Position numbers and translations under genes: made by a program
Shown: piece by piece, positions 7,455 to 58,819 of the stretch
Layout: every line of letters starts with the position of its first letter
How positions within the stretch are numbered: position 1 is the stretch's first letter
Source: Octopus vulgaris
Taxonomy: Eukaryota
NCBI GenBank assembly: GCA_951406725.2
Contig: OX597818.1
Coordinates: forward strand, 132,432,001 to 132,496,000
DNA length: 64,000 bases
Direction of reading: 5' to 3'
The notes under the pieces: generated by a model
What the model was told of the DNA's origin: nothing
The model's database searches: none
What the model saw: the letters and a program-made list of their open reading frames with translations, nothing else

Positions 7455-7750
<296 letters not shown>

Positions 7751-9866: not shown

Positions 9867-9873
9867 AATTAAA

Positions 9874-13235: not shown

Positions 13236-13274
<39 letters not shown>

Positions 13275-13370
13275 CGGGAAGCTTTATGAAAATAAACAAA
13301 AGACGAAGGCAGGTGGAATACAAACAAACAATTGTATTAGTATGGCACTCAGGAATATAAATAAAACAAG

Positions 13371-13408
13371 TCTTTTACGTTTCGAGCCTATGCTCTTCAA
13401 CAGAAAGA
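13371..13408 (-). ncRNA. Minimal hammerhead-like motif (A6U variant) in a PLE-like fragment (13275-13470)
   Basis: Reverse complement reads tcttt-CTGTTGA-a-GAGC-atag-GCTC-GAAA-cg-TA-aaaga; perfect 5-bp stem I. Confidence 0.55.
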
Positions 13409-13468
13409 TACACAGAAAAGAAACACGGAGAGAAAAAAATGCGTGCAGAAGCTAGCGAATCAACATGG

Positions 13469-13510
<42 letters not shown>

Positions 13511-13519
<9 letters not shown>

Positions 13520-13691
13520 TGGGGCAGGCAACAGGTTGCTTGGCTGCATACTGAAAAATTAGAAATGTGAATTACAGGGATATGTCGTGTGTGGAGTCCC
13601 ACTTGTAGAAAATAAAATAAACAGTCTTGACTGCTATTTCTAATTTTTCGGTATGCGGTCAAGCAACCTGTTGCCTGCCCCATTTATTTAT
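13511..13691. repeat. Foldback element, about 56-bp arms
   Basis: 13511-13566 is the reverse complement of 13636-13691; shares a ctgctatttctaa motif with 53870-54091. Confidence 0.8.
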
Positions 13692-13842
13692 ATACAATAT
13701 ATATACTGAACTTTGCAGAAGTTCCTACTGTTAATCGGTTATATTTACATACCGAATTCTACCAGTAAATAATTGTTGGTTTTTTTAAAAACCATTATAG
13801 GAATTATTTACTCTTATCATATATATATATATACATACATAC

Positions 13843-13873
<31 letters not shown>

Positions 13874-14632
13874 AAATACAAAATGGGACAAGAGCACAAA
13901 ACATCCAGACAACTAGGTGATACAAAAAGGGACAACAAAACACCCAGATAGACGACACAAATAAACAAGGACGGGTCATATGAAGCTTTCTATGCTCAGT
14001 CAAGAATCAGATCATCCTCACAATTTCGGCTGATTAATCTTGAGATTGCTCCAATCTGGCCAACCCCAAGGAAAAACTAAGAGCATTAGATATCTTGGAA
14101 GAAAGTATCAAATGTATACGAAAACAAGGACAGAAAAACAGACAATGTTACACAAATATAATTACATAATAAAATAAAAATAATAATAACAGGTCTCTTT
14201 GTTGCAATCAATATATTTAGAAGCTATGAGTCTCATGTAATAGGAGTGGAGGAGCTGCACTCTGTTGCTCACAGTCTTTAACCAAAGTTCAGTATCAAGG
14301 ACAGGACGTCTATTGTTATTGGGTGTCTAGTGGGGTAATCTATTGTTGCCTTGATACTTTGGTGGACGGAGTTAGCTATATGCTGGATGCTCTCCATTGT
14401 GCTTTTCTCGGATTCTACACTAGAGTTACTAGAGTTTGTCCTAACTAGAATATTAATGTCATCTACATACCTACCGTAAAGTAAAACAGTTGCATATATA
14501 TATGTGTGTATATATATATATATATATGTGTATGTATATGTGTGTGTGTGTATGTGTGTATGTGTGTGTATATATATATATATATATATACATATATATA
14601 TACATATATATATATATATGTATGTATCTATG

Positions 14633-17450: not shown

Positions 17451-17607
17451 CCAATGTGTGTAGTAGTGGTGCGCGCACACATTATTAGTCATTTGAAAAG
17501 ACTATGGAATTGAATCAAACCTGTTGAAGTTTCATGTGAAACTCAACTGTACAACTTATAATAAATATATGGAGCAGTGAGAACATGATCAGCCTTATTT
17601 GGCTATT

Positions 17608-19037
17608 CAGCTCTAAAGAATTTTAATAACATGGGTTAGGACTCAGGAGAAGTGTTTGCAGGTGTTAGATGTATCCAGGCTCAGAAGTATTTTGTACCTC
17701 ACTTAACATTTTATGTATTGAAAACTACCAATCACTGAAGGAAATGAACATGAAAGGAATTTCACAGTCCTGATTCACAGAGGCTAATTAGCCCAAACAG
17801 ATTTAAATAACATGGGTTAGGGCCTATGAGAAGTGATTGCCAGTGTTGCATATACTCAGGCTCAGAAATATTTTTGTACCTCACAAAATGTTTTACATAT
17901 TGAAAACTACCAATTACAGAAAGAGATGGACACGAAAGGAATTTCACAGTCCTGATTCACAGAGGCTATTTAGCCCAAACAAATTTGAATAACATGAGTT
18001 AGGGCCTATGAGAAGTGATTGCCAGTGTTGCATGTACTCAGGCTCAGAAATATTTTTGTACCTTACAAAATGTTTTACATATTGAAAACTATCAATTACA
18101 GAAAGAGATGGACACGAAAGGAATTTCACAGTCCTGATTCACAGAGGCTATTTAGCCCAAACAAATTTAAATAACATGGGTTAGGGCCTATGAGAAGTGA
18201 CTGCCAATGTTGCATATACTCAGGCTCAGAAATATTTTTGTACCTCACAAAATGTTTTACATATTGAAAACTACCAATTACAGAAAGAGATGGACACGAA
18301 AGGAATTTCACAGTCCTGATTCACAGAGGCTATTTAGCCCAAACAAATTTAAATAACATGGGTTAGGGCCTATGAGAAGTGATTGCCAGTGTTGCATGTA
18401 CTCAGGCTCAGAAATATTTTTGTACCTTACAAAATGTTTTACATATTGAAAACTATCAATTACAGAAAGAGATGGACACGAAAGGAATTTCAGTCCTGAT
18501 TCACAGAGGCTATTTAGCCCAAACAAATTTAAATAACATGAGTTAGGGCCTATGAGAAGTGATTGCCAGTGTTGCATGTACTCAGGCTCAGAAATATTTT
18601 TGTACCTCACAAAATGTTTTACATATTGAAAACTACCTATCACAGAAAGAGATGGACACAAAAGGAATTTCACAGTCCTGATTCACAGAGGCTATTTAGC
18701 CCAAACAAATTTAAATAACATGAGTTAGGGCCTATGAGAAGTGATTGCCAGTGTTGCATGTACTCAGGCTCAGAAATATTTTTGTACCTCACAAGATGTT
18801 TTACATATTGAAAACTACCAATTACAAAAAGAAATGGACACGAAAGGAATTTCACAGTCCTGATTCACAGAGGCTATTTAACCCAAACAAATTTGAATAA
18901 CATGGGTTAGAGCCTATGAGAAGTGATTGCCAGTGTTGCATGTACTCAGGTTCAGAAATATTTTTGTACCTTAAAAAATGTTTTACATATTGAAAACTAC
19001 CAATTACAGAAAGAAATGGACACGAAAGGAATTTCAC
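17608..19037. repeat. 182-bp tandem array: 7 near-identical units plus 1 diverged unit
   Basis: Units start at about 17761, 17943, 18125, 18307, 18489 (180 bp), 18669 and 18851; diverged unit at about 17608-17760. Confidence 0.95.
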
Positions 19038-20009
19038 TGGAGGCTATCCTCTAGGCACATAATAATCTGTTGTTGTCTAGTTAATATGACCTCAGATTCA
19101 GAAGAGTAGCACCCATAGGCAACCATTACATAGAAAATTCAATATGGTCACTCTGTCTTTATCATAAGTCATGTTGGCCTTAAATTTAGGACTTAGGCCA
19201 GATTTTAAATTTATTAATGTTTGATTGTTGAAGGGGTTTTTCACTTCTGCATTGTTGAAGGGTGATTAACTATGGGGACCGAACACCACCCCACAAATGC
19301 ATACATAAACACCCACGAGTTCTTTGTTGTGTGTATAGTTTTTCATTGTTATTATTATTATTACCATCTCATTAGGCAAGTGCTGTATGAATTTGTTGAT
19401 ATGAATTCAAACTGCATGCTGTTCTACCCCCATAATGACCCTCTTCATTACTCTCCCTCTCTCTCTCTCTCACACACACACATACACACACAAACTCGCA
19501 CCACTTTAATCACCTGGTTGATTAGATTTTTTTTTTTTTGGCATTTTGGCTTTGCTTCACACACCTCTAAAATTATGAATGGAAATTGTTTTTAATAAAC
19601 AAACAAAAAAAAAAGATGAATCACTATTGTTTTTGCCGTTGTTGTTGCGTTGTTGTTGTTGTTGTTGTTGTTATTGGTGGAAGTATAAATCAAAATTAAA
19701 TAAGAAATAAACAACTAAAATGGACAGTTGTAAAGAAATCAACAACAATAACAAATACAAAAAGAAGAAAACAAACGTAAAAGATGATTAGTGTAAGGTC
19801 AATAAACTCATAACTAAAATGTAAGGGAACTACTATGAAGATAAAGGAACTAGTTGCCCCCCAAAAAAGAGAGTTTGTGTGTATGGGCAGGGTTGGGTGC
19901 ACGGGGGGTAGGGGATAAAATGGAAATTAAAATGAAGAATGATTAGAAAATGGATCAGAATGAGAAGGTATTAGCATGGTGGAATAAACAGCAAGTGAGA
20001 CAAGAGAAT

Positions 20010-42164: not shown

Positions 42165-42411
42165 TAATAATTAAGTAAATAATGTGAAATGTCAGCATGG
42201 TTAAAACTTGAACATGTAATAGTTGTTTTTGTTGTCGTTAATAGCCCAGATTAATGTGACAAGTTGATAGAAGCATCAGCATACCAGGCAAAAAGGTTAG
42301 TAGCATTCCATCCATCATTATGTTCTGAGTTCAAATTTCACAAAAGTTGAATTTGCCTTTCATCCTTTTGGTGTTCATAAATTAAGTATCAGTGAAACAT
42401 TGGGGTCAATT

Positions 42412-42672
42412 ACGGAGATGTACTCGCATAGCAAGTGATTTGATCTGAGATCGTGTGCTGGAACGAAAACAATTGCAGCATGGAAGGTGTTTGTAAGCCA
42501 TTTAAGAAACACACAAAAGCCATGAGATGCAGCACAGATTTTTGTCAGTGAACAGGTCGCAGATTTTAGCGACGAAAATATTTTGACAAATTAAACTTAA
42601 ATGTTGAAGTGAATCGAACGGCTTTTGTGTGTTTCTTAAATGGCTTACAAACACCTTCCACGCTGCAATTGA
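42412..42672. mobile_element. Family E short hammerhead-bearing foldback element inserted in an old SINE C
   Basis: Arms of about 50 bp (caattgcagc...aaaagcc); homologs at 50828, 56196 and 58539. Confidence 0.8.
42541..42590 (+). ncRNA. Type-I hammerhead, G3:C8 core variant
   Basis: tttgtca-GTGAACA-g-gtcgc-agatttta-gcgac-GAAA-atat-TT-tgacaaa: 7-bp stem I, 5-bp stem II, palindromic stem III region. Confidence 0.75.
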
Positions 42673-43509
42673 TTGGGATCAATGTAATTGATTAGTCTCT
42701 TCCCCCCAAATTTCAGGCCTTGTGCCTTCAACAGAAAGGGTTATTAGCTCAGGTCAACTTGAATTCAAGTGACCTATGATAGGTTTCACATTTTGACACA
42801 AGGCCAGCAATTTTGGAGGAAGGCGTAAACAGATTACAACAACCCCAGTGCTCGACTGGTACTTATTTTATCAACCCTTAATGGATGAAAGCAAAGTTGA
42901 TCTCAGCAGAATTTCTACTCAGAGTGTATAGACAGATGAAATGCATCTAAGCATTTTTACCAGTATGTTAACGTTTCTTTTAGCTCACCACCTCACAAAA
43001 GACCTATAAGTAATCAAACTCATTCTAAACAAAACCAGCCATGATTACATTGTGTAGGCACATAGCCTTAGGGTTACAGTATTGCATTATAGATCATAAG
43101 ATTTCTGTTTCAATTCCTGGACCAGGGGGTGTTTTGTGCTCTTGAGCAAAACTTTTCATTTCATGTTGCTCCAGTTCATTCACCGGTCAATGCGTTAACC
43201 CTGTGATGATCCAGCATCCTGTTGTAACCACAGCCACTTATCCACATTGGAAACCAGGTCAAGCTCTAACTCGATGAGTCCAACAGCTCATGCAAAAAAA
43301 CAAAAAAAAAAATGTTGTATGCCCTTTTCTTTTGTTTAAGATAATTATAGTCCAATTTGAGAATGATTTGCTTGTTATTTCTAATAGATGAAACGATTAT
43401 ATATAGTTTTCCTTGTTGGTTCATAGTTTCCCACATCAGGTGTATTAGTAATCTCAGATTTGAGTTATGAGTCATATGAACGAAACCATGATATTTATAT
43501 ATCCATAAG

Positions 43510-44095
43510 CCTGTGAGCTGGCAGAATCATTAGCACACCTGGAGAAATGCTTAGCGATATTTCGCCTGCCGCTACGTTCTGAGTTCAAATTCCACCGAGG
43601 TCGACTTTGCCTTTCATCCTTTCGAGGTCGATTAAATAAGTACCAGTTACGCACTGGGGTCGATGTAATCGACTTAATCCATGTGTCTGTCCTTGTTTGT
43701 CCCCTCTTTGTTTAGCCTCTTGCGGGTAGTAAAGAAATAGGTATTTCATCTGCCGTTATGTTCTGAGTTCAAATTCTGCCGAGGTCCACTTTGCCTTTTA
43801 TCCTTTCAGGGTCGATAAATTAAGTACCAGTTATGCACTGGGGTCGATGTAATCGACTTAATCCCTTTGTATGTCCTTGTTTGTCCCCTCTATGTTTAGT
43901 CCCTTGAGGGCAATAAAGAAATAAGAATCGTTAGCAGCATTTTGTCTGTTCTTACATTCTGACTGCAAATGTTGCTGGGGTCAAAACTTTTCCTTTCATT
44001 CTTTTGGGGTTGATAAAATAAGTACCAGCTGAACACTGGGGTGGATGTAATCCTGCCTTCTAAGCTTGCAGGCCTTCTACCAAAAGGAGAAACCA
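43510..44095 (+). mobile_element. SINE family C dimer nested in an older family C copy
   Basis: Junction at 43740; agaatc(a/g)ttagca occurs at both ends of the dimer and an older body follows. Confidence 0.8.
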
Positions 44096-44436
44096 ACATT
44101 TATATATCCTATAAAGTAATATTATAAGAAAAATCTTCAGTTGCTTCAATTTTCTTGATCAGAGCAATCAATCAATGGTTGATTAACTCTATTGATTTTT
44201 AGAGTTTTGAGATTCATGGCTTTAACAAGTGAAGAAGAATAACTAAAGTATAAATTTTAAAAAAAGCAGTTTGCTTCGAATTTACCCTCTATGCTACTAT
44301 ATGTAGGCTTGGTAATGGGATGGTGACTTTGCTTTGTAATCACAGAATTTTAAGATTCATGTATAGTACCTTAGGAAGTGTCTTTCACTAAAGCCCAAGG
44401 CTGAAAAATGCTTTGTGACAGGATTTCATTCTATAT

Positions 44437-44840
44437 ACTCTCTTTTACTCTGCTTCTTGTTTCAGTCATTTGACTGCAGCCATGCTGGAGCACCGCCTTT
44501 AGTAGAACAAATCGACCTCAGAACTTATTCCTTGTAAACCTAGTACTTATTCTATCAGTGTCTTTTTCCGAACTGCTAAGTTACAGGGATGTAAACACAC
44601 CAACATCGGTGTCAAGCGATGGTGGGGGAGAGGACAAACATGGAACACAATCACACACACACACACACACACATATGACAGGCTTCTTTCAGTTTCTCTT
44701 TACCAAATCCACTCACACAGCATTGGTCAGCCTGAGGCTATAGGAGAAAACACTTGCCTAAGGTGCCATGCAGTGGGATTGAACTTGGAACTATGTGGTT
44801 GGGAAGTAAGCTACTTACCACACAGCCACTCCTGCACCTA
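44437..44840 (-). mobile_element. SINE family B
   Basis: Homology to family B. Confidence 0.85.
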
Positions 44841-44937
44841 TATATATATATATAGAAAATATGAAAGCCTGTTGTATTTATATGTATGTGAATGTGTGTG
44901 TGTGTGAGTGTATAGGTATGTGTGTGTATGTGTGTAT

Positions 44938-45248
44938 GTCACGTGATCACGTGACCGACCAGACCATCAGATGTTGTTACACATCGCTGGTCACAATGCG
45001 TTCACATTGTTTTAGCCTTTGAATGATGCCACCCCACTGGCTAAGCGAGCAGGCCAACAGAAGAAAGAGTGAGAGAAAGAGTGGTGAAAGAGTACAGCAG
45101 GGATCAACACCATCCCCTGCCGGAGCCTCGTGGAGAATTTTAGGTGTTTTCACTCAATAAACACTCACAACGCCCGGTCTGGGAATCGAAACCACGATCC
45201 TACAACCGCGAGTCCGCTGCCCTAACCACTGGGCCATTGCGCCACCAC
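44938..45248 (-). mobile_element. SINE family A, head1 + tail2
   Basis: Reverse complement of 39799-40103. Confidence 0.85.
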
Positions 45249-45483
45249 ATGTGTGTATATACATGTGTATATATATACCTAGATGCAAGCATATAAAAAT
45301 GTCAAATTTATCTATTTCTCCACTGATTGATAAAGATTATGACTTGCCTTAATTAATTTCCAACCTTTATTGGAGTCTTGTTAGAAGTGTATATATCATT
45401 TGGCCAGTCTCTGAGAAATGAGCAACCAATCTATTTATTTGTACATCAAATCCAGTTACTCCAGAGAACTGGTGCTACTAATT

Positions 45484-45730
45484 TGGCACGTAAAAAGCAC
45501 CATCCGATCGTGGCCGTTTGTCAGCCTCATCTGGCACCTGTGCCGGTGGCACGTAAAAAGCACCCACTACACTCATGGAGTGGTTGGCGTTAGGAAGGGC
45601 ATCCAGCCGTAGAAACATTGCCAGATCAGACTGGGCCTGGTGCAGTCTTCTGGCTTCCCAGACCCCAGTTGAACCGTCCAACCTATGCTAGCATAGAAAG
45701 CGGATGCTAAACGATGATGATGATGATGAT
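45484..45730 (+). mobile_element. Family D (RTE 3' end)
   Basis: (GAT)n tail and homology to family D. Confidence 0.8.
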
Positions 45731-46319
45731 ATGTTTAGCACTTTATTTAATATCAGAGGACCCAGTTCACACTGTGTCAAGGTATAATATATGTAAACCT
45801 ACGTGTAGATATACAAGCATGCCCAATTTAAACTACTTCTTCAAATATTGGAAATATAAAGAACAAATTTAATTGATTTTCAACCCTTACTAGGATCTCA
45901 TCAAAGGTGCGCCATGAACTTGAATGTGTCTCTGTGAATGTCTACATTCTGTCTTTACATGAAACTGTTTGAGTAAAAACAATGGTCTTATGCTGACATT
46001 CCCAGTGAACATGTCATCCTCTAGCTCTTGGCTTTCAGCTTTTATTCAGTAGCTTTATTATGAATTGGAGCAGTCAGCTGAGGTAAGACCTACAGATCTA
46101 TTGTTTCAGATACAGTATGCCTCCACCAAGTTGAGAAGCAAGCTAAAACCTCTGACATACAGTGCTTAATCCTTTTGTTACCATATTTCTTGAATTCGTT
46201 TCAAATAGTTTTCAAAATTATGAAGAATTTGCTAAACTAATTTTATCTTTATTGACATAGTGTTTGGAACATAACTGGACATGATATTTAAAGAGAAGAT
46301 TTTGATTAGATCAGCTTAA

Positions 46320-46541
46320 CCCTTTAGCATTCAAACAGGCCATATCCAGCCAAAATATTCTACATGTTTTATGTTCAAACTGGCCACATTGGGCCTCTGC
46401 CATCTACCCTATGATATACATTCTAAAACATAAGTAGTCACATCATCAAAATCTCGAAACTGCACACTAATGCATGATTAATTCAAAACAATGCGAATAA
46501 ATAAGCATTACTTTTGACAGAGTAATATGAATGCTAAAGGG
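46320..46541. mobile_element. piggyBac-type MITE (22407 family, opposite orientation)
   Basis: TTAA|CCCTTTAG...CTAAAGGG|TTGA. Confidence 0.75.
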
Positions 46542-46550
46542 TTGAAATAT

Positions 46551-46782
46551 ATTTCTTTACTACCCACAAGGGGCTAAACACAGAGGGGACAAACAAGGAC
46601 AGACAAAGGGATTAAGTCGATTACATCGACCCCAGTGTGTAACTGGTACTTAATTTATCGACCCCGAAAGGATGAAAGGCAAAGTGGACCTCAGCGGAAT
46701 TTGAACTCAGAATGTAACGGCAGACGAAATATCGCTAAGCATTTCGCCCAGCGTGCTAACGTTTCTGCCAGCTCGCCACCTT
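46551..46782 (-). mobile_element. SINE family C monomer
   Basis: 14-bp TSD aaagggttgaaata at 46536-46549 and 46785-46798. Confidence 0.9.
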
Positions 46783-47164
46783 TCAAAGGGTTGAAATAGG
46801 GAGTTTGTGGCATAAGCATAAAACCAGAAGCAGTGTCAGTTGGGTTGCTGACAATTAAAGAATTAAAGTATTCGTGGAGGCCAATATCAGGTAAAAGATA
46901 TAGCGCCCTGTTTGATGTTAATTAGAACATTATGTTAGTACAACTGATAAAGAGTCATATTAAGTGATTCATTCTTAATTTCATTTCTGTTTGCTCTGAG
47001 TTCAATGAGGACAGACAGCCTAATGGTTAGCATATTCAGCTCATGATCATAGTGTCATGTGTTCAATTCCTGAACTAGGTAGCATGCTGTGTCCTTAAAC
47101 AAGGCACTTTATTTCATATTGCTCTCGTCTACTCAGCTGAAAATTAGTACTAGCTAAGTACTAA

Positions 47165-47512
47165 TCTCTCTCTCTCTCCCTCTCTCTCTTACTCTAACTT
47201 TATCTCTCTCTCTCACTCACTTTCACCCTTTCTCTCTCACTCTTTGTCTCTCACTCTCTCTCTTTATCCCCTTTCTTCCCCTTCTGTCTCTCTCTCTCTC
47301 ACTCACTTTCACCCTTTCTCTCTCACTCTTTGTCTCTCACTCTCTCTCTTTATCCCCTTTCTTCCCCTTCTGTCTCTCTCTCTCTCACTCACTTTCACCC
47401 TTTCTCTCTCACTCTTTGTCTCTCACTCTCTCTCTTTATACCCTTTCTTCCCCTTCTGTCTCTCTGTCTCTCTGTCTCTCTTTCTTTCTTTCTCTCTCTT
47501 TTTCTCTCTCCT
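47165..47512. repeat. Polypyrimidine minisatellite, 86-bp unit about x3
   Basis: cactcactttcaccctttctc... recurs at an 86-bp period. Confidence 0.9.
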
Positions 47513-47847
47513 TCCAGATGTCACTTGTGGCTGTGCCACTGAGCCAAAGAGTAGGAGAGTTGACAGAGTATTTATGTCTGCTTACAATGACATAGGCACC
47601 TACAACAATTAACCAAAGCATGTTACATATCACCAAGCCATTCTTGTTCACAGGTAATGGCTGGCTCTACTTAGGCTCTGAGTTTAAATTCTCATGGTAT
47701 TAACTTTACCTTTAAGTTCTGCATCTTATGTACAGACAACCTTCACATTCCAGAAAATTTGCATTACTGAAAATTTTGCAGTAACATGGAATTCTGTAGG
47801 GTGAAACATATTTTCCCATTGGTTTCCATGTTTATTGATTTCTATGT

Positions 47848-48232
47848 GGATGGAAGCACTCCGTCGGTTACGATGACGAGGGTTCCGGTTGATCCGAATC
47901 AACGGAACAGCCTGCTCGTGAAATTAACATGTAAGTGGCTGAGCACTCCACAGACACGTGTACCCTTAACGTAGTTCTCGGGATATTCAGCGTGACACAG
48001 AGAGTGACAAGGCCGGCCCTTTGAAATACAGGTACAACAGAAACAGGAAGTAAGAGTGAGAGAAAGTTGTGATGAAAGAGTACAGCAGGGATCACCACCA
48101 CCCCTGCCGGAGTCTCGTGGAGCTTTTAGGTGTTTTCGCTCAATAAACACTCACAACGCCCGGTCTGGGAATCGAAACCGCGATCCTATGACCGCGAGTC
48201 AGCTGCCCTAACCACTGGGCCATTGCGCCTCC
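47848..48232 (-). mobile_element. SINE family A, head1 + tail1 (full length)
   Basis: Near-identical to 3834-4212. Confidence 0.9.
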
Positions 48233-49314
48233 TCAATTTCCATGTAACATGGAAGTGAATGAAAAAATAAGATTCATGTTACAGAATTCTTATGTGACAG
48301 TGTGTTTTTTCAGTGATGTAATGAATGTAATGTAGTGGATGCCTGTATATTTACATCTATACGTTCGTTAGCCTTGTACCCCAATTAAGAAATCAATACA
48401 CATGAAGTATTTAATAATCTTCATGATTAATCCATGTAATATTATTTCATAATGTCATTTGATAAAGTCACAGTTTGACTCTCTGCAGCTTTTATTGAGG
48501 TAAAGAAAAACAAAGAAGTCAAAAAAAAAAAAAAACCACCCAACAATTTAATCCATGTCAGATGTATGAGTAATCAAAAGATTTAATATTACAAGATTAT
48601 TGTCAGGTATAATCCCTTTTAATAAGGATCTTTGCATCGTTGCTAGAAACTATAAATTTGCAATCAATGCATTTGAGAACAGCTTCAGCTAACCCCTGCT
48701 CACCTGAAATTTTTGAAGTGCTTTTAAGGAAAAGAATGCTTCTTAATGGGAGATATTTAATCACCGTTGAGAAGCCATTTTCTGAATATGCTTATAGGAA
48801 GATATAACATGATTGTTTTTTTGCTTTTTGGATAAAAAAGGAAAGGAATAGTGAATAATATTGCTGTAGATTTTTATATTATAACTCATAAAATATTTGT
48901 AGGTTTTTGTTAAGTTACCCAATGTAAACTTCTTGAAAAATCTATGATTATTATGATTTCACACAAATCTGTAATTTAACTTGAAGCATATCTCGAGTTT
49001 TATTATTTTGGTAAAGTAACTGAAATAAACCTCTCCACAATATTTGTTTAGTTTATTATTCCTATAAAGTTGCCATGAAATATTTTACTAATCAGAAATT
49101 GAGAACAGATTTTTGCATATAAAATCTGTAACTGAAAATATCAGAACATATTTCAATATTGATTTTGTAACCTATCAAAATCTAAAATTTCAAATTATCT
49201 CCAAATATTCAACATTTTTGAAGGTGAGCCTAAATATTTTTAAGGTGATTCTAATGTAAAAAAATTAATAATAATAATTTCAGTTTAACATCCTTCAACA
49301 AATCTTTTTTTTTT

Positions 49315-50057
49315 ATCTTTTTTCTTGTTTCGGTCATGAGACTGTGGCCATGCTGGAGCACCAGCTTGAAGAATTATAATTGAACAAATCAACCCCCAGT
49401 ACTTATTTTTAAAAATCTGATACTTATTCTATCAGTCTCTTTTGCCAAACTACTATATTGTGGCTGTGTGGTAAGTAGCTTCCTAACCAACCACATGGTT
49501 CTGGGTTCAGTCCCACTGCGTGGCATTTTGGGCAAGTGTCTTCTGCTATAGCCCCGGGCCGACCAATGCCTTGTGAGTGGATTTGGTAGACGGAAACTGA
49601 AAGAAGCCTGTCGTATATATGTATATATATATATCTATGTGTGTGTTTGTGTGTTTGTGTTTGTCCCCCTAGCATTGCTTGACAACAGATGTTGGTGTGT
49701 TTACGTCCCCGTAACTTAGCGGTTCAGCAAAAGAGACCGATAGAATAAGTACTGGGCTTACAAAGAATAAGTCCCGGGGTCGATTTGCTCGACTAAAGGC
49801 GGTGCTCCAGCATGGCCGCAGTCAAATGACTGAAACAAGTAAAAGAGTAAAAGAGTATAGTAGTTTGTCAAGTGGTGATGGAGGTCACACACTGACACCA
49901 CACACACACACACACCCACGACAGGCTTCTTTCAGTTTCTGTCCACTATATCCACTCACAAGGTTTTGGATTGCACAAGACTATAGTAGAAGATTCTTGT
50001 CCAAAATGCTACACAGTGGGACTGTGATTGGAAAGCAAAGATATTGCCACACAGCCA
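49315..50057. mobile_element. Young + strand SINE B (49460-49856) nested in an old - strand SINE B
   Basis: Old copy tail at 49315-49459 and head at 49865-50057. Confidence 0.8.
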
Positions 50058-50360
50058 CTTAAAGAGCATCTGAAAATGTTCTATTTCAAATTTGTTCCTT
50101 TATTGGTTTCTTGGCATCCATTTTCTCATGTTAGCGTGGGTGGCTTAAAAGTTGTATACCTTTCCTGTTATTAAGCTTTACCTGCTTTTCAAGCAAGGGA
50201 TATTTTATCATAAATGTTTTTAAATGTGTAGAGCTAACAGGTGGCTTATTGGCAAAGAATGACATTGTGCAGTACTTTGGATATCTTGTGAGTGAATTTG
50301 GTAGAGAGAACTATACAAAGCCTGTCATATATAGGCCACTTATTTCTGAAGCACACGTAT

Positions 50361-50762
50361 AGGCACAGGAGTGGCTGTGTGGTAAGTAGCTTGTTTACCA
50401 ACCACATAATTCCGGGTTCAGTCCCACTGCGTGGAACCTTGGGCAAGTGTCTTCTACTATAGCGTCAGGCCGACCAAAGCCTTGTGAGTGGATTTGGTAG
50501 ACGGAAACTGAAAGAAGCCAGTCGTATATTTGTATATATATATATGCATGTGTGTTTTTGTGCGTCTGTGTTTGTCCCCCTAACATTGCTTGACAACCGA
50601 TGCTGGTGTGTTTATGTTACTTAGCGGTTCGGCAAAAGAGACCGATAGAAAAAGTACTGGGCTTACAAAAGAATAAGTCCCGGGGTCGAGTTGCTCGACT
50701 AAAGGCGGTGTTCCAGCATGGCCGCAGTCAAATGACTGAAACAAGTAAAAGAGTAAAAGAGT
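50361..50762 (+). mobile_element. SINE family B
   Basis: Full-length homology. Confidence 0.88.
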
Positions 50763-50827
50763 ATACCGAGTTCTAACACCAGGATATTAGTATCACAGTC
50801 CCTAAGCAAAGCAATATATATATATAT

Positions 50828-51186
50828 TACGGAAATGTACTTACATAGCAAGTGACCTGATCTGAGATCATGTGCTGGAACGAAAACAATTGCAACGTGG
50901 AAGGTGTTTATAAGCCATTTAAGAAACAAACAAAATCTGTTAGATTCACTTCAACATTTAAATTTAATTTGTCAAAATATTTTTCTCACTTTGAGACCAC
51001 GACCTGTTCACTGACAAAATTCTGTGCTGCTTCCATGATGCAGTACAGAATTTTGTCAGTGAACAGGTCGTGGTCTCAAAGCGACGAAAATATTTTGACA
51101 AATTAAATTTAAATGTTGAAGTGAATCTAACAGATTTTGTTTGTTTCTTAAATGGCTTATAAACACCTTCCATGCTACAATTGTTT
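50828..51186. mobile_element. Family E foldback with two G3:C8 hammerheads (51052-51102 + intact; 50968-51018 - decayed)
   Basis: About 145-bp inverted arms; tttgtca-GTGAACA-g-gtcgt...gcgac-GAAA-atat-TT-tgacaaa. Confidence 0.8.
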
Positions 51187-51209
51187 ATATATATATATAT
51201 ATATATATA

Positions 51210-51413
51210 AGATAAGGAAATGATTTTATTCTCAAATGCAGGATAATGCTAATAATATAGCATTAACAAGATAAACTATCCATATTTTGCAGAAAAATCT
51301 GTCAGTCTGGCTACCCGCCGACAGATTTTTCTGCAAAATATTGATAGTTTATCTTGTTAATGCTATAATATTGGCATTATCCTGCGTTTGAGGATAAAAT
51401 TATTTCCTTATCT
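51210..51413. repeat. Foldback, about 94-bp arms with a 16-bp loop
   Basis: 51210-51303 is the reverse complement of 51320-51413. Confidence 0.85.
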
Positions 51414-51480
51414 GTATCTTTCAATACATCTCAATGCTTCAGAAGCAAACTTTGTTGACTTTCAATGTAAGTTGAATTTA

Positions 51481-51513
<33 letters not shown>

Positions 51514-51537
51514 TGTATGTATGTATGTATGTATGTA

Positions 51538-51829
51538 TGGAGGCGCAATGGCCCAGTGGTTAGGGCAGCGGACTCGCGGTCATAGGATCACAGTTTCGAT
51601 TCCTAGACTAGGCATTGTGAGTGTTTATTGAGCGAAAACACCTAAAGCTCCACGAGGCTCCGGCAGGGAGTGGTGGCAATCCCTGCTGTACTCTTTCGCC
51701 GCAACTTTCTCTCACTCATTCTTCTGTTGGCCTGCTCGCTTAGCCAGTGGGGTGGCGTCATTTAAAGGCTAAAACAATGCGAAATGCATTGTGACCAGCG
51801 ATGTGTAGCAACATCTGATAGCCTGGTCG
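51538..51829 (+). mobile_element. SINE family A, head1 + tail2
   Basis: Homology; inserted in (TATG)n. Confidence 0.85.
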
Positions 51830-51844
51830 CAAAAAAAAAAAATG

Positions 51845-51875
<31 letters not shown>

Positions 51876-51960
51876 GTATGTATGTATGTATGCATGTATG
51901 TATGGTATGCATGTAGGCATGTTTGTGTGCATGCATATATATATATGCATATATATATAT

Positions 51961-52455
51961 ATGGTGCCACAGAGTGGGACTGAACTCGGAACCATGTATT
52001 TGGAAAGCAAACTTCTTAGCACACAGCCATACCTATGTATATACACATAACTACATCTATATATATATATATATATATATATATAAGTTTGCTTTCCAAA
52101 TACATGGTTCCGAGTTCAGTCCCACTCTGTGGCACCATGGGCAAGTAACTTCTACTACAGCCTGGGGCATGTGAGTGAATTTGATAGATGGAAACTGAAA
52201 GAAGCCTGTTGTGTATGTGTGTGTGTGTGTGTGTGTGTGTCTGTGTGTATGTTTGTCCCTCATTGCCACTTGACAAACAGTGTTGGTGTGTTTACATCCT
52301 GGTAACTTGGGAGTTTGGCAAAGAGACCAAAAGAATAAGTAGCAGGCTTCACAAAATATATAAGTTCTTGGGTAGATAATTTTGGTTAAAATTCTTCAGG
52401 GTGGTGCCCCAGCATGGCCACATTCTAATGTTGGAAACAAGTAAAAGATGAAAGA
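51961..52455. mobile_element. SINE B with local inverted duplication of its head
   Basis: 51961-52014 is the exact reverse complement of 52085-52138, including private mutations. Confidence 0.8.
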
Positions 52456-52981
52456 TATTCTTTTATTTGTTTCAGTCATTTGACTGCAGCCATGCTGGAG
52501 CACTGCCTTTGTTTAATGCAAGTAGCTAAGAATTTTCTCTAGAACAAAAAAACCTGTTCCTGCTCAGATGTCGGCTTTAGCTTGATTTCCAGCCTCACAT
52601 ATCTTCCATGCCTTTTTCTTTTCAGAATCATAAAGTACAAGTATTCCATTATCCATTTGAACACACTTTTATTCAACAACATCTTACTTTTTCTCTGATA
52701 CACTGCCTTGCAATCTGGAACACCTTATGCTTCTAGTCCACGTGTTGTAAAACATTGGCATACCTACTTTCTGCTTCTCCCCTTGCTAAATAAACTTGCC
52801 ATCTACCTACCTTGTAAAGTATTTGTCAACAGATAGGACCTATTCTTTGTAAGCCTAGTATTTATTCAATCAGTCTCCTTTGCTGAACTGCTAAGTTACA
52901 GGGACATAAACACACCAACATTGGTTGTCAAGTGATGGTGGGGAGACAAGCACAAATGCACAAACATATATATATGTATAT

Positions 52982-53017
<36 letters not shown>

Positions 53018-53018
<1 letters not shown>

Positions 53019-53572
53019 GAGCAAAACGCACCACCCTTCCCTGTCCAATGGATGGTGCTGAGTTGTCAAACATTTAAGCCAAATTTTCTCAAAGCTTTTC
53101 ATTAAAAATAATTAAGCATGCCTTTATTTCAATAAAATTTTTGGTTTTGTTAAACGAAATTAAGGTAAAAAAAACTTCTTGAGAAACCAAATAGTCTTTC
53201 CTTCCTTCATGCCAAGTTTGAAGAAAATATCTCTTTTGCATCTTACTTTTTTGGTCTCTCAAATATACTGCATTTTGCGGCATTATTTCAAGCCAGCCGG
53301 CTTTTTTTGCACAAACTGCACGTGCATTTTTCTTGTGTACGTGTAGTATTGATCGCAACAGCTGATGTACTTGCACATACAAATGCACGTTCCCACGGCT
53401 TTATTGATCGCATTCTCACCTGGAATCGATTTTTGTAATTTTTTCAAGACTTATGCATGCCCTGATACCATCGGTATCTACATATCAAATTTGAGCACAA
53501 TCGGATGGAGGATGCCCGAGATCCTAGAAGACACACACACACAGACAGACAGAACAGATTATATATAATAGA
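53018..53572 (-). mobile_element. Non-autonomous Helitron-like element inserted in a SINE B (52840-53748, minus)
   Basis: Minus start A|TCTATTATATATAA plus (GT)n; 3' hairpin caccatcc..gggtggtg near a degenerate CTAG; the SINE resumes on both sides. Confidence 0.6.
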
Positions 53573-53869
53573 TATGCAACAGGCTTCTTTCAGTTTCCAC
53601 CTACTAAATCCACTCACAAGGCTTTGGTCAGGCTGAGGCTATAGGGCTATAGTAGAAGACACTTGTGCAAGGTGCCACACTGTGGAACTGAACCCAGAAT
53701 CAGAATCATGTGGTTGGTAAGCAAGGTACTTGTCACACAGCCACTCCTATATATATATAATATATATATAATAACAAAGGGTAAAATTAATTAATTAAGA
53801 AGTAATCAATAATTTCACCAAGTAGAATTCGGCATGAAAAAAGGACCATTTCATGGTAAACTTAAGTAA

Positions 53870-54091
53870 TACTAAATAATTAGGGTTCAGCAAAGATTTG
53901 CTTTACCACATATCGAAGTTTAGAAATAGCAGCCAAAAAACGTTAGCTATTTCTTCTACTTTAAAAAGGGACCCTGGTTTTTCTGGGAGTCCCTTTTTAA
54001 AGTAGAAGTAATAGCTAACGTTTTTTGGCTGCTATTTCTAAACTTCGATATGTGGTAAAGCAAATCTTTGCTGAACCCTAATTATTTAGTA
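53870..54091. repeat. Near-perfect foldback, about 103-bp arms, in a TA-flanked PLE-like fragment
   Basis: 53870-53972 is the reverse complement of 53989-54091 (1 mismatch seen). Confidence 0.9.
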
Positions 54092-54239
54092 TATATATAT
54101 ATGAATTTATTTATGTATGTATATGTGCTTATATCTGTGTGATTATTTACATTTTGCACTTCACATGGAAAAGTAGCAAGCTACAAATGATGTTTTATAT
54201 GGCACAGTTGACTGGATAACATTCATCTTTGATCTTTGG

Positions 54240-54620
54240 TCTTTCATCTTTTACTTGTTTAAGTCACTGAATTGTGGCCATGCTGGTACTACCTCAAAGG
54301 GTTTAGTCAAGAAAACTAACTCCAGTACTTATTATTTTTAAGTCAGGTACTATTTGGCCAATCTCTTTGCTGGAATGCTTAGTTACATGGATGTAAACAC
54401 ACCAACGCCGGTTGTCAAGTGGTGGTGAGAGACAAACATGCACAAACACACATGCACACACACCCAATAACATATATATATACATCAAGATTCTTTCAGC
54501 TTCCATCTACCAAATCCACTCACAAGGGTTTTGTTTGCCTGGGGCTACAGCAGAAGACACTTGCCCAAAGTACCATGTGGTTCTGAAGCAAACTTCTTAC
54601 TACGCTGCCACACTTGTGCC
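54240..54620 (-). mobile_element. SINE family B (old)
   Basis: Diverged homology. Confidence 0.7.
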
Positions 54621-54980
54621 TATAACATTCAGACCAAAGTCAATTAATCATTTTATAAGTATATATTTACCACTCATTGACACAGGCATACCTAACACAA
54701 CATATACCATTCCAAATCCTACCAGGTGTATAGCTACATAATAGTCACTTTCTTGAAGTCAATAAAGACTTATTTAACCATGAATGTATCTGATTAGATA
54801 AAATGGAACCAATTAATTCAATTAATTCAATAGTAGGGAATCTTTCCTTTTAAATCAGTTTCTTTTTGTTGTTGTTTTAGTTTTTATTTTTACTGTTACT
54901 TTTAAAATTTATGTTTTTAATTTTTTTCTAAAGCGTTGTCTAATACTCTGGTGATTCTACCAATCCATTCTCTTAGTAAT

Positions 54981-55032
<52 letters not shown>

Positions 55033-55034
<2 letters not shown>

Positions 55035-55328
55035 CATCCGAATGTGGCCGATGCCAGCGCCGCCTTGACTGGCTTGGTGGCACATTAAAAGCACCAACCG
55101 ATCGTTGTCGATGCCAGACTTCCCTGGCACCTGTGCCGGTGGCACGTAAAAAGCACCCACTACACTCGCGGAGTGGTTGGCGTTAGGAAGGGCATCCAGC
55201 TGTAGAAACACTGCCAGATCAGACTAGAGCCTGGTGCAGCCTCCTGACTTCCCAGACCCCGGTCGAACCGTCCAACCCATGCTAGCATGGAAAACGGACG
55301 TTAAACGATGATGATGATGATGATGATG
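55033..55328 (+). mobile_element. Family D (RTE 3' end) after (ATA)n
   Basis: Homology and (GAT)n tail. Confidence 0.82.
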
Positions 55329-55595
55329 AATCAAAAAGGCTTTAGATAACTATAAGCTGGAATTGCTTTCAGTTACTGTATCCAGGTCTCTAGAATGTTC
55401 TGAGTGATACATTGTAATCTTAGAGAGTTGTGACCAGATATACTATCTCTGCACACTATGTAAACTATAAAACACAAAAAGCTTTTCTCTATAAAATTTG
55501 AGGAAGTGATAAATCAGGAGTAATTAAAGCTTGAAATAGAATACTTTCAGTGTCTTATCTGTGATTCAAAATTTTCGATTTACCAAATAGAACAC

Positions 55596-55660
<65 letters not shown>

Positions 55661-55983
55661 GCTCTCTATCTCTCTCTCTCTCTCTTGTGTGCATAAACAC
55701 ACACACACACACACACACACACAAGTAAGTGTGTGGGTGTATATATATTTGAATGTATGTATATGAGTATATATATATATCTGTATGTATGCATGCATGT
55801 GTGTGTGGTATAAAAATATAAAAAAACCTGAAGATGAAGTAAAAAAAGCCAGACAAACAGGGTATATTAGGTTGATGCTCAGAAAACTGTAGAAGTCTTT
55901 AAGGTTTTGAATTCTTCTATAGAAAGGGTAGATGAGGAAATACGAAAATATAGAGAAAAGAGCAAATGTATATATTATATGAA

Positions 55984-56045
<62 letters not shown>

Positions 56046-56195
56046 TGTAATATATGATATATATTTAGACATGGTTGTATGATAAGAAGCTTGCTTCCTA
56101 ACTACAATAGCCTTTGGCCAGCTAAAACCTTGTGAGTGGATTTGTTAGATAGAAACCGAAAGAAAATTGTTGTGCACATATATATATATATATTA

Positions 56196-56402
56196 TGGAG
56201 ATGTACTTGCATAGCAAGTGATTTGATCTGAGATCGTGTGCTGGAGCGAAAACAATTGCAGCATGGAAGGTGTTTGTAAGCCATTTAAGAAACACACAAA
56301 AGCCGTTCGATTCACTTCAACATTTAAGTTTAATTTGTCAAGATATTTTCGTCGCTAAAATCCGCGACCTGTTCACTGACAAAAATCCGTGCTGCACGGA
56401 TT
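56196..56402 (-). mobile_element. Family E monomer with G3:C8 hammerhead (56334-56383)
   Basis: Homology to 42412-42672; in (TA)n; one substitution near the cleavage site. Confidence 0.78.
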
Positions 56403-56416
56403 TATATATATATATG

Positions 56417-56461
<45 letters not shown>

Positions 56462-56463
<2 letters not shown>

Positions 56464-56857
56464 TCTTTTACTTGTTTCAGTCATTTGACTGCGGCCATGC
56501 TGGAGCACTGCCTTTAATCGAGCAACTTGACCCCGGGACTTATTCTTTTGTAAACCCAGTGCTTATTCTATCGGTCTCTTTTGCTGAACCGCTAGGTAAC
56601 GGGGACATAAAGACACCAGCATCGGTTCTCATGCAATGTTAGGGGGACAAACAGACACACAAACACACACACGCATATATATATATATATACATATATAC
56701 GACGGGCTTCTTTTAGTTTCCGTCTACCAAATCCACTCACAAAGCATTGGTCAGCCCGGGGCTATAGCAGAAGACAGTTGCCCAAGATGCCTTGCAGTGA
56801 GACTGAACCCGGAACCATGTGGTTGGTTAGAAAGCTACTTACCACACAACCACTCCT
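56462..56857 (-). mobile_element. SINE family B
   Basis: Homology to family B. Confidence 0.85.
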
Positions 56858-57390
56858 ATATATATATATTTATATGTATATATATATATATCTATATGTA
56901 TGCATATATATATGTATATATATATATATATATAAGGCAAATAAGAAAATGAAGAGGATAATCAATTGATAAACATCAGTGTGTAGACATCCACTTGTAT
57001 CTATTTATTAATTGATTACAATCATATGTATAAGTAATCAAATAAACAAATGAAATAAGCAAATAAAAAAGTAAATAAATAGATAAATAAAAACAAATAA
57101 ATTAATAAGAATAAATGAATGAAAAAGTACTAATCTCTTACATCTGTTTCTACTATGGGGTTGCCCAATCTGCCATGTTTTCCACATCATGCCAATAATA
57201 TACAGGGAAATTACTAAGAAGTATAAGATAGTTCCTAAAAATACACTTAAGAAAATGAATTTAGAAGCAAAGAATATTACATTGAACTTTAAGTTAGATA
57301 ACAAGACAGAACTGTTTACACCAATCTGACCAAATATTACAATTAAGGACCATAAGGTTAACTTCATAAATAAGACACAAGTTAGATTAA

Positions 57391-57612
57391 CCCTTTAGTG
57401 TTCGCATTATTCTGCCAAAACTAATGCTTTTTTGTCCTCATTGTTTTGAACTAATCATGCATTATCTTGTAGCTATGAGATGTTGATGAGGTAGCTGTTA
57501 ATTTTTAAGATGATATTGTAGGGTTGGTTGTGAGAGACCAGATCTGACCAGTTTGAACATAAAACAAGCAGAATACTTTTGGCCGGATATGGCTGGTTTA
57601 AATGCTAAAGGG
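57391..57612. mobile_element. piggyBac-type MITE inserted at TTAA in the PLE RT
   Basis: TTAA|CCCTTTAG...CTAAAGGG|TTAA; removing it restores VRLICP. Confidence 0.9.
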
Positions 57613-58368
57613 TTAATATGCCCTAACAAATCAGATATAGGTAAACTAAGTAAGGTAATTTTGGATAAATATCTACCAACACTAAAAAGCAAAATCAAGC
57701 TTGAACTATGGAATAACAGCCAAAGTTCATTAGACTGGTTCCCCAACATACAAAATTATTACTCTTCAATGAACCCTCTTGTTTTGAACAGTGCTCTTAT
57801 TTTAGCAAGGAAATTTACTAATTTAAGTATGAAGGAAATTAATGTTGTACTCATGGCTTGAAAAATTGTTATCAAATTTGGGAACAAACTATGGGCAAGA
57901 AATGGCACACCTAATCACTTTGGTATCATAATAGACTTGCCAAACTCAGTGGAAGCGGTGAACTTAGTAGGAATCTACCTTTTAGAGAACATAAACAGGG
58001 AATTCCCAGAATTAAGAGGAGGTCTGTACAGAGACAATGCACTCTTTATAGTTAGAAATCACTCTAATAGGGATCTAGAATATTAAAGAAATGCCTACAT
58101 AAGTTTTTCAGTAGATTTGGTCTCTCTATAACTATAGAAAATGAAAATTACTCCATTTAACTATTTAGACACACACTGCAACTTAAACACTGAACTACAT
58201 GAACTGTATATGAAACAGAACTCTAATTTAAGATATATAAATAATTTCAGTAACCATCCCCATTCAATAAAAAGAGCTCTTTTAAGAAATATAAGCAAAA
58301 GAATCTCAAACCTTTATTTAAATGAAGCGATATTTAATAAGCACAAGGATACGTGTAATGTCTTTGTC

Positions 58369-58451
58369 CAGCTGAAGAATGCTCTGTATTTTTAATTGAT
58401 GTAATGATTTCATTGTTCAATTAAATGGAGTTGCATGAAACGATCATACTG
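58369..58451 (+). ncRNA. Hammerhead motif with long stem II
   Basis: cag-CTGAAGA-atgc...gcat-GAAA-cgatca (decayed CGATCG)-TA-ctg. Confidence 0.55.
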
Positions 58452-58538
58452 CATTACTTCTGGATATCCTTGTTGCTTATTTTGATTATATATACATGTA
58501 TATATATAAAAAAAAAAAAATATATATATATATATATA

Positions 58539-58745
58539 GGGAGATGTACTCCCATAGCAAGTGATTTGATCTGAGATCGTGTGTTGAAACGAAAACAATT
58601 GCAGCGTGGAAGGTGTTTGTAAGCCATTTAAGAAACACACAAAAGCCGTTCAATTCACTTCAACATTTAAGTTTAATTTGTCAAAATATTTTCGGCGCTA
58701 AAATCCGCGACCTGTTCACTGACAAAAATCCGTGCTGCATCTGAG
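58539..58745 (-). mobile_element. Family E monomer with G3:C8 hammerhead (58677-58726)
   Basis: Homology to family E. Confidence 0.78.
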
Positions 58746-58819
58746 AAAGTAACAATTAGTAATACACACACATATATATATACATATATATAATATATAT
58801 ATAATAATATATATATAAT

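Follow-up and report, generated by a model that had tools for sequence, protein, structure and literature searches.

Within a 64-kb stretch of Octopus vulgaris DNA (the window) lie several copies of a short repeat, family E, built around a hammerhead-like motif with a swapped core pair. They raise the question of which kind of mobile element leaves such copies behind, and whether the motif is still a ribozyme. Self-BLAST of the window placed family E insertions at 42411-42671, ~50827-51186, ~56193-56403, and ~58539-58760, confirming the four insertions proposed in a preliminary description of this DNA. Beyond 21 bp, the search matched nothing except these four. The output of a generic repeat finder was dominated by microsatellites. 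Copies 1, 3, and 4 are about 95 to 97% identical to one another over their common part and about 87 to 90% identical to copy 2, which belongs to a second subfamily. Their features are as follows.

42399 to 42410, forward strand: 12-bp target-site duplication on the left of copy 1 (11/12 matching the right duplication)
42411 to 42521, reverse strand: inverted partial arm of copy 1 with a tail of ~60 bp; ORF codons 1 to 31, ATG at 42501
42526 to 42671, forward strand: direct arm of copy 1; hammerhead, ATG at 42640, ending at +32 from the ATG, the short 3' end
42541 to 42590, forward strand: minimal type I hammerhead motif of copy 1; intact, predicted cut after 42583 (U17)
42672 to 42683, forward strand: right target-site duplication of copy 1
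50827 to 51033, reverse strand: inverted arm of copy 2 with tail, second subfamily; damaged hammerhead, ORF start at 50918, two stops
51037 to 51186, forward strand: direct arm of copy 2; intact hammerhead motif at 51052-51102, ending at the short 3' end
56193 to 56403, reverse strand: copy 3, monomer with tail; hammerhead at 56383-56334, C replacing U16.1; ATG at 56284
58539 to 58760, reverse strand: copy 4, monomer with tail; hammerhead at 58726-58677, one mismatched pair in stem II; ATG at 58627

Two of the four insertions are foldbacks, that is, inverted partial copies with a tail of ~60 bp on one arm. In both, the direct arm ends at +32 to +35 and the tail lies on the inverted arm. The family has two fixed 3' ends, both within an ORF, at +32 and about +92 from the ATG. 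The end reported earlier as common to all copies is real and, read in hammerhead sense, is the 3' end; the opposite end, said to lie 15 to 25 bp past stem I, extends to ~34 bp in copy 4. This copy also carries a 19-bp 5' extension (58742-58760) that by eye resembles a splice acceptor, and a 21-bp hairpin is present at the 5' end of copy 3. Loose ends in public contigs clustered, among the rows listed, at 58540-58541 in 4/4 runs and at 58742 in 3/4 runs, and they were flanked by AT-rich sequence of low agreement. As for the insertion sites, (TA)n adjoins three of the four copies, on either side in the case of copy 2, and the remaining one, copy 1, has the 12-bp target duplication. Copy 1 sits in an older SINE-like repeat, and the empty site rebuilt from both flanks aligns unbroken to other copies of this host repeat.

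We then consider the hammerhead. Its description stood up well: we found the 7-bp stem I, the GUGAACA core, an extra G, the 5-bp stem II, GAAA, and a stem III formed by a palindrome; H17 falls at 42583, in agreement with the predicted cut position. The G3:C8 core, located at 42548-42554 in copy 1, is present in 5/5 hammerhead arms. Furthermore, the stem II loop differs between the two subfamilies and the stem is kept, in the window as well as in public contigs. A strict motif scan detected 2 motifs in the window; 100 Markov resamples yielded 0.02 on average, with one motif in each of two resamples. Only two of the five arms are intact, with a Watson-Crick 3:8 pair (as G3:C8 instead of C3:G8), GAAA, and UH, and in both all remaining core positions are canonical. 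Damage consists of the U16.1 change in copy 3, the stem II mismatch in copy 4, and the loss of G12 and part of stem II in the inverted arm of copy 2. The fold is closed by an 11-nt inverted repeat between the 5' end and the short 3' end. Unconstrained cofolding of two copies predicted a swapped-stem dimer, which does not bear on the active fold.

Rfam returned no match at the gathering score anywhere in the window. Relaxing the threshold to E ≤ 10 over 42300-42800 gave 10 matches, none of them a hammerhead; the top three were miRNA hairpin models that fit the foldback and score far under the cut-off. An 18-nt motif scan gave 0 matches in viral contigs; 52 metagenome loci from the same scan were discarded as chance matches, the second half of the motif being absent in all and the best BLAST match covering 23 bp.

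The minimal hammerheads (min-HHRs) of Penelope-like elements (PLEs) are described by Cervera and de la Pena 2014 (PMC4209133) as having one additional nucleotide ahead of stem II, a G10.1-C11.1 pair, and a stem III that is palindromic, and as occurring both singly and in opposite-strand pairs. Family E shares the extra nucleotide, G10.1-C11.1, and the palindrome together with the type I layout, and it is likewise mostly solo, with opposite-strand pairs 100 to 700 bp apart. It differs in its core pair, which is G3:C8 and not C3:G8 or U3:A8 as in these min-HHRs, and in stem I, which has 7 bp compared to 4 to 5 bp in Schistosoma (PMC4209133). A natural G3:C8 core was not found in the accessible part of the literature and could be described elsewhere. 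Judged from its sequence, the swapped core pair is the only unusual feature of the predicted hammerhead, which is otherwise as in PLEs.

The repeat had been described as noncoding and without an ORF; the second statement is wrong, and the first is wrong for the last ~92 bp. An ATG lies 56 nt past the cut site in 5/5 hammerhead arms, and these ~92 bp read as codons 1 to 31 of a protein, the final bases being the beginning of codon 31. This frame, interrupted by two stops in copy 2, matches Octopus proteins at 84 to 90% over 29 to 31 amino acids. Residues 1 to 31 of the O. sinensis gene model P0002 are 90% identical to it, and a search with the 31-amino-acid frame against 1.84 billion representatives gave a single match, a protein of O. 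bimaculoides (88% over residues 1 to 26, E = 3.6e-7). P0002 is chimeric, a methyltransferase following from about residue 223 onward, and its residues 74 to 223 are 78% identical to P0003 of O. vulgaris. Among 4423 candidates, P0003 had 29 longer relatives, the best with 37% identity across the entire P0003. Pattern matches in these relatives included [YF][VI]DD (29/29), a CX2-5CxxC knuckle (25/29), YxGE[TS] (24/29), and [TA]DK[ST]G (22/29), and residues 1 to 220 of P0002 align directly with their N termini (best E = 3e-23). Pfam detected RVT_1 in 3 and GIY-YIG in 2 of 17 relatives, every match being below the curated cut-offs; it gave no match for P0003 and nothing useful for P0001. The protein search found one further Octopus relative (49%) and no Octopus protein extending to the YVDD motif or to an endonuclease. 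An Atlas search of P0003 yielded 29/30 matches in one eukaryotic cluster set partly marked DUF8422, which is uninformative on function. Of 175 pattern matches to P0003 in viral contigs, 0 were confirmed.

The Octopus gene models thus tile into relatives that carry reverse transcriptase (RT) motifs and, at the C terminus, GIY-YIG motifs, which argues that family E derives from an endonuclease-positive PLE. Contiguity with the RT/GIY-YIG ORF was obtained by protein tiling of gene models and not at the DNA level, and no full-length partial-tandem copy (pLTR-ORF-pLTR) was found within the 64-kb window. Family E is very probably a solo pseudo-LTR, i.e., the 5' UTR plus ORF start, of such an element in Octopus. 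A link to PLEs had been suggested before; it is borne out more strongly than claimed, since family E itself would be the PLE part. Copies that are inverted and 5' truncated, a tail on one of the ends, and a preference for (TA)n are traits reported for PLEs (PMC8557442, PMC8969392). Family E displays an inverted 5'-truncated copy, a one-end tail, a pseudo-LTR hammerhead, and AT-rich or (TA)n targets. Another family in this window is laid out likewise, with an inverted arm plus hammerhead, and has kept a GIY-YIG fragment. Several observations count against this explanation: the link through a chain of gene models, one of them chimeric; the weak Pfam matches; hammerhead pairs that show no two-sided covariation; the lack of an Rfam hammerhead match; a tail of ~60 bp versus 30 to 40 bp in print; and a 5' limit that is near-fixed instead of varying through random truncation, which would fit a stand-alone unit too.

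The CX2-5CxxC linker pattern of the relatives may point to Neptune or Nematis rather than to Poseidon. The likeness to these two clades (Craig et al. 2021, PMC8557442) includes the RT, the linker, and a GIY-YIG-like motif in full-length relatives, as well as the (TA)n bias, the inverted copies, and the tail. The DKG motif reads DKS in 22/29 P0003 relatives. Four family-specific strings were not found in the Naiad/Chlamys/Hydra supplement of PMC8557442.

How the copies may have been made is suggested by PAc of Anolis carolinensis, an element of the Poseidon type (Frangieh et al. 2024, PMC11167929), in which the hammerhead lies at the ORF start, internal RT initiation sets the tail, and the main template is uncut RNA. 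The sense strand of family E reads as a short 5' leader followed by the minimal type I hammerhead, 56 further nt, and, from the ATG on, 11 or 31 codons of the probable RT/GIY-YIG ORF. By analogy with PAc (PMC11167929), the PLE protein would bind the ORF start of its own RNA and nick AT-rich DNA, and reverse transcription would be primed internally, at either +32 or about +92. Copying back to the RNA 5' end would yield inserts of ~150 or ~205 bp with a near-fixed 5' limit, and a second, inverted priming would yield the foldbacks. Given a PLE origin, we consider it reasonably likely that the copies were made in this way, directly from the transcript of the autonomous element. As in PAc, the hammerhead is found at the junction of pseudo-LTR and ORF, two end sites inside the ORF start define the tail, the targets are AT rich, and uncut RNA would be copied. 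However, the ATG lies 56 nt after the cut in family E and 26 nt before it in PAc, its ends lie at +32 and about +92, whereas those of PAc are from +111, and the ~60-bp tail is unlike that of PAc (PMC11167929). Since all copies run past the predicted cut by 55 to 75 bp, their templates would have been uncut RNA, and hammerhead cleavage would hence not be the copy-making step.

At best, the family E motif would be a weak ribozyme assisted by dimerization or by protein. It may also be a relic, i.e., a descendant of a hammerhead that no longer cuts, with G3:C8 and U17 tolerated and the pseudo-LTR kept for other reasons. We take this possibility seriously without favoring it; it bears on activity alone and is compatible with the PLE pseudo-LTR explanation. 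In PAc, a C3G/G8C hammerhead is only partly active and requires the protein, and hammerhead mutants still inserted (PMC11167929). Moreover, 8/9 Xenopus dimers were without in vitro cutting, and in family E, A13/A14 could base-pair with U17 through the longer palindrome that surrounds stem III. In stems I and II, 0/12 hammerhead pairs change on both sides and 96.7% of cells pair, in a set of only five closely related arms. A test for lower variation inside the hammerhead gave p = 0.08, on hand-assigned counts from a public-contig table that is incomplete near the ends, and carries no weight here. On the other hand, positions 3 and 8 have both changed in a manner that preserves the pair, which is also kept, as C:G or A:U, in other families of the window. 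The canonical state of the other core positions in the two intact arms, and a stem II retained while its loop differs between subfamilies, likewise speak against a relic.

The ~205-bp copies, once derived from the pseudo-LTR, might also be transcribed themselves and mobilized in trans by the protein of the parent, as a SINE-like mini-PLE. This would refine the PLE pseudo-LTR explanation rather than propose another origin, and we regard it as rather unlikely. Near-fixed ends across public contigs, a very high summed depth, the two subfamilies, and the fold closed by the 11-nt inverted repeat would suit such a unit, as would the occurrence of the sequence in at least three studies that we guess to be RNA, although none is listed as an RNA data set. 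However, internal initiation on the parent transcript would produce the same fixed ends and needs no separate master, no promoter is evident, and the ORF start has retained its 84 to 90% match to the parent-type protein. Pol III boxes had been reported as missing; by eye no A box was found, and one weak antisense B-box-like 9-mer is present in both copies tested (3 and 4). A bolder version is improbable: the unit would be a self-propagating mini-Penelope with roughly tens of thousands of copies, whose G3:C8 hammerhead cuts by trans-dimerization or with protein help and could clip read-through host RNAs. If true, this mini-Penelope would be among the most abundant ribozyme-bearing repeats in Octopus.

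Family E had also been called retrozyme-like. Non-LTR retrozymes, in which hammerhead-cut tandem repeats give monomers that are circularized and reverse transcribed, are similarly short, high-copy, and PLE related and carry a type I hammerhead (PMC7229834; bioRxiv 10.64898/2026.07.22.740005). The size of family E falls within their range, and monomers related to pseudo-LTRs are known (bioRxiv 10.64898/2026.07.22.740005). Unlike retrozymes, however, family E includes an ORF start and has a minimal PLE-type motif, which is distinguished from the canonical retrozyme hammerheads in PMC7229834. Because head-to-tail copies were seen in 0/4 cases in the window, the retrozyme reading is not supported; in addition, the cut site is never the start or end of any copy, and one weak "goes back" joint occurs among the 15 of 41 public-contig joints listed. 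We therefore consider a retrozyme very unlikely.

Least probable of all is a MITE or Helentron-type nonautonomous DNA element with an incidental hammerhead likeness, a reading that is largely refuted: the foldback copies, the insertion in TA, the 11-nt inverted repeat, with one half close to the 5' end and the other ~65 bp inward from the 3' end, and the small hairpins near the 3' end, in which family E presumably resembles the Helentron type, are outweighed by end 25-mers that match at only 3 to 7 of 25 positions in 4/4 copies and are thus no terminal inverted repeats, by the 12-bp target duplication of copy 1, by a 3' part that is the start of an RT-type ORF, and by a motif that is rare by chance.

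As the PLE class is already known, recognizing family E as a pseudo-LTR is mainly a gain in annotation. Some Octopus gene models begin with the ORF of its parent, as in P0002, where it is fused to a methyltransferase. The hammerhead would represent a natural G3:C8 core at very high copy number that would be missed by descriptors limited to C3:G8 or U3:A8. With its two fixed ends in the ORF start and its uncut templates, family E would be a genomic footprint of internal initiation, the model demonstrated in vitro with the anole element, and this footprint probably stems from a second PLE clade. Thousands of copies would make it possible to map the 5' end of the transcript and to test for selection on a PLE hammerhead.

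All four insertions of family E, a short repeat with a hammerhead motif, were found where the preliminary description had placed them (~42411, ~50827, ~56193 and ~58539, copies 1 to 4), and they were the only substantial mutual matches in a self-BLAST of the 64-kb window. Aligned on the hammerhead-sense strand they provide six arms, one each from copies 3 and 4, which are minus-strand monomers, and two each from copies 1 and 2, which are foldbacks with the inverted arm first and the direct arm after. Copies 1, 3 and 4 are about 95-97% identical to one another and about 87-90% identical to copy 2, whose stem II loop also differs from theirs, as the first reading had noted. At least half of the sampled family E words were present in 20 of the 24 public sequencing runs listed (11 studies, 4 coded organisms). 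In one contig set, run X1, summed depth over family E was about 1-4 million, with 7 of the 8 listed pieces at or near 33-54; read as an order of magnitude and not as a copy number, this suggests an abundance of tens of thousands or more.

The motif has the composition described for it (a 7-bp stem I, GUGAACA, a 5-bp stem II and a palindromic stem III), together with one extra G and GAAA, and U17, the nucleotide at the predicted cut, does fall at 42583. A strict motif scan returned 2 occurrences in the window; 100 resamples averaged 0.02. Only two of the five hammerhead arms keep the motif intact, the direct one of copy 1 and that of copy 2; in the remaining three, the core or stem II is damaged. 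Since none of 12 pairs was changed on both sides across these five arms, the hammerhead fold agrees with the copies and is not proven by them. A search of Rfam recognized no hammerhead at the family E motif. The motif call is correct and family E is a real feature; it is quite conceivable, if somewhat less than probable, that this predicted hammerhead does not cut.

On the sense strand, the end common to the copies is the 3' one, and it occurs in two forms. In each foldback the direct arm has the short form, at +32 to +35 relative to an ATG; the other four arms have the long one, ~60 bp further on. A (TA)n run adjoins three of the four copies. Copy 1 interrupts an older repeat and is flanked by a 12-bp duplication (sides alike at 11/12); once rebuilt, the empty site aligns continuously with other copies of the host repeat. 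Among the matches listed, contig loose ends pile up at 58540-58541 in 4/4 public runs and at 58742 in 3/4, with AT-rich flanks of low agreement beyond; both limits thus look family-wide. An 11-nt inverted repeat pairs the 5' end with the short 3' end and may be an RNA stem at a priming site; it is the sole feature of family E that resembles a Helentron-type element. At the 5' end, copy 4 has a 19-bp extension (58742-58760), covered by some public contigs, in which a branch point and a splice acceptor can be made out by eye. Copies 1 and 2 share another, shorter motif there (42522-42527, 51034-51040), and four contigs of run X10 have loose ends behind 58760 that start with a similar one. These differences could have arisen by splicing, through a small deletion or from junction filler; in Penelope of D. 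virilis, an intron ends at helix I, according to passages of PMC4209133.

The earlier reading had seen no ORF. This does not hold, as an ATG lies 56 nt past the predicted cut in all five hammerhead arms, and in copies 1, 3 and 4 its frame has no stop before the long 3' end. The 31-aa peptide had one match among 1.84 billion representative proteins, residues 1-26 of an uncharacterized O. bimaculoides protein. A search for longer relatives yielded two proteins from 342 candidates. Residues 1-31 of P0002 (O. sinensis) are 90% identical to the peptide, and this protein extends onward from the point where family E ends. P0002 is a chimeric model, with ~223 residues of element ORF followed by a methyltransferase domain, probably a mis-joined gene model. 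P0003 (O. vulgaris) is 78% identical to P0002 over their 151 residues of overlap, and we take its downstream motifs to be the start of a Penelope-like element (PLE) reverse transcriptase. With all three named proteins from Octopus species, the window is most likely Octopus DNA as well. It has 29 longer relatives, the best with 37% identity across its full length. By pattern match, [YF][VI]DD is present in 29/29 of them, a CX2-5CxxC knuckle in 25 and YxGE[TS] close to the C terminus in 24, and residues 1-220 of P0002 align directly with their N termini (best E value, 3e-23). In the 17 relatives scanned with Pfam, RVT_1 matched three and GIY-YIG two, all under the cut-off. The order RT, Zn knuckle, GIY-YIG is also that of Neptune/Nematis PLEs in passages of PMC8557442.

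This protein chain to RT and GIY-YIG relatives bears out the proposed PLE link, and the sequences make it very probable that family E consists of solo pseudo-LTRs of an Octopus PLE. A self-propagating mini-element would be expected to look much like family E; we regard this reading as unlikely. A retrozyme, as suggested at first, would require head-to-tail arrays, and with none of the four window copies so arranged it is very improbable. A MITE, which would require terminal inverted repeats absent from all four copies, is more improbable still.

Three further families of the window have minimal hammerhead motifs, their core pair being C3:G8 or A3:U8, and the window also holds other repeats and PLE relics:

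9868-10960, minus strand: 3' fragment of a PLE, including a GIY-YIG domain that exceeds the Pfam cut-off (24.4 bits)
2555-2716 and 7558-7720, minus strand: short (TA)n family, canonical C3:G8 minimal hammerhead at 2696-2662
13270-13470, minus strand: short element between (TA)n runs, minimal hammerhead at 13408-13371 with A6 changed to U
14210-14481, minus strand: RT relic spanning YVDD that shares 55% identity with one of the full-length relatives of the family E parent
~57617-58300, plus strand: decayed PLE RT relic, Hydra-clade likeness by eye
17583-19154: tandem array of about 8 copies of a 182-bp unit, without a hammerhead motif in window-wide scans
13496-13705: ~210-bp self-matching inverted repeat with TA runs on both sides, a further putative foldback family

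The PLE fragment at 9868-10960 carries an inverted copy of its own end (10716-10960), and in each arm there is a hammerhead-like motif whose core pair is A3:U8 and whose stem II has only 2 bp (9953-9919, 10883-10917). The 7558-7720 copy is damaged and was recognized by eye. The relic at 14210-14481 may derive from the family E parent or a sister family. Between the end of the ~57617-58300 relic and copy 4, which is on the other strand, there are ~240 bp, and the two do not look related.

Hammerheads in PLE pseudo-LTRs are already known, and in 2014 truncated PLEs were named as the origin of solo minimal hammerheads and of pairs on opposite strands (passages of PMC4209133). Natural U3:A8 cores are published (passages of PMC4209133 and PMC3088659), and A3:U8 was absent from the passages searched. 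For G3:C8, the core pair of family E, no natural case was found in the literature and supplements searched, which did not take in the paper most likely to report one (Lunse et al. 2017); in the passages covered, G3:C8 is a laboratory mutant only. Among the papers listed on Octopus, Penelope and hammerheads, titles and passages contained nothing on family E, which may already be catalogued, e.g., in Repbase or Dfam. Penelope is among the expanded families of coleoids in passages of PMC8967140.

A close parallel is PAc, the Poseidon element of Anolis carolinensis. In passages of PMC11167929, its hammerhead lies at the pseudo-LTR/ORF junction, reverse transcription begins at two sites within the ORF start that bound a tail, AT-rich DNA is nicked, and the main template is uncut RNA; C3G/G8C restores cleavage in part, and cleavage requires protein. 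Family E agrees with this account in its two ends inside the ORF start with a tail between them, in its TA targets and in copies continuing past the cut site, here by 55-75 bp beyond the predicted position. Inverted 5'-truncated copies and a tail on one side are PLE traits (passages of PMC8557442 and PMC8969392). In family E, priming at two sites close to the transcript's 5' terminus would give short inserts ending at the RNA 5' end, and a second, inverted priming would give the foldbacks.
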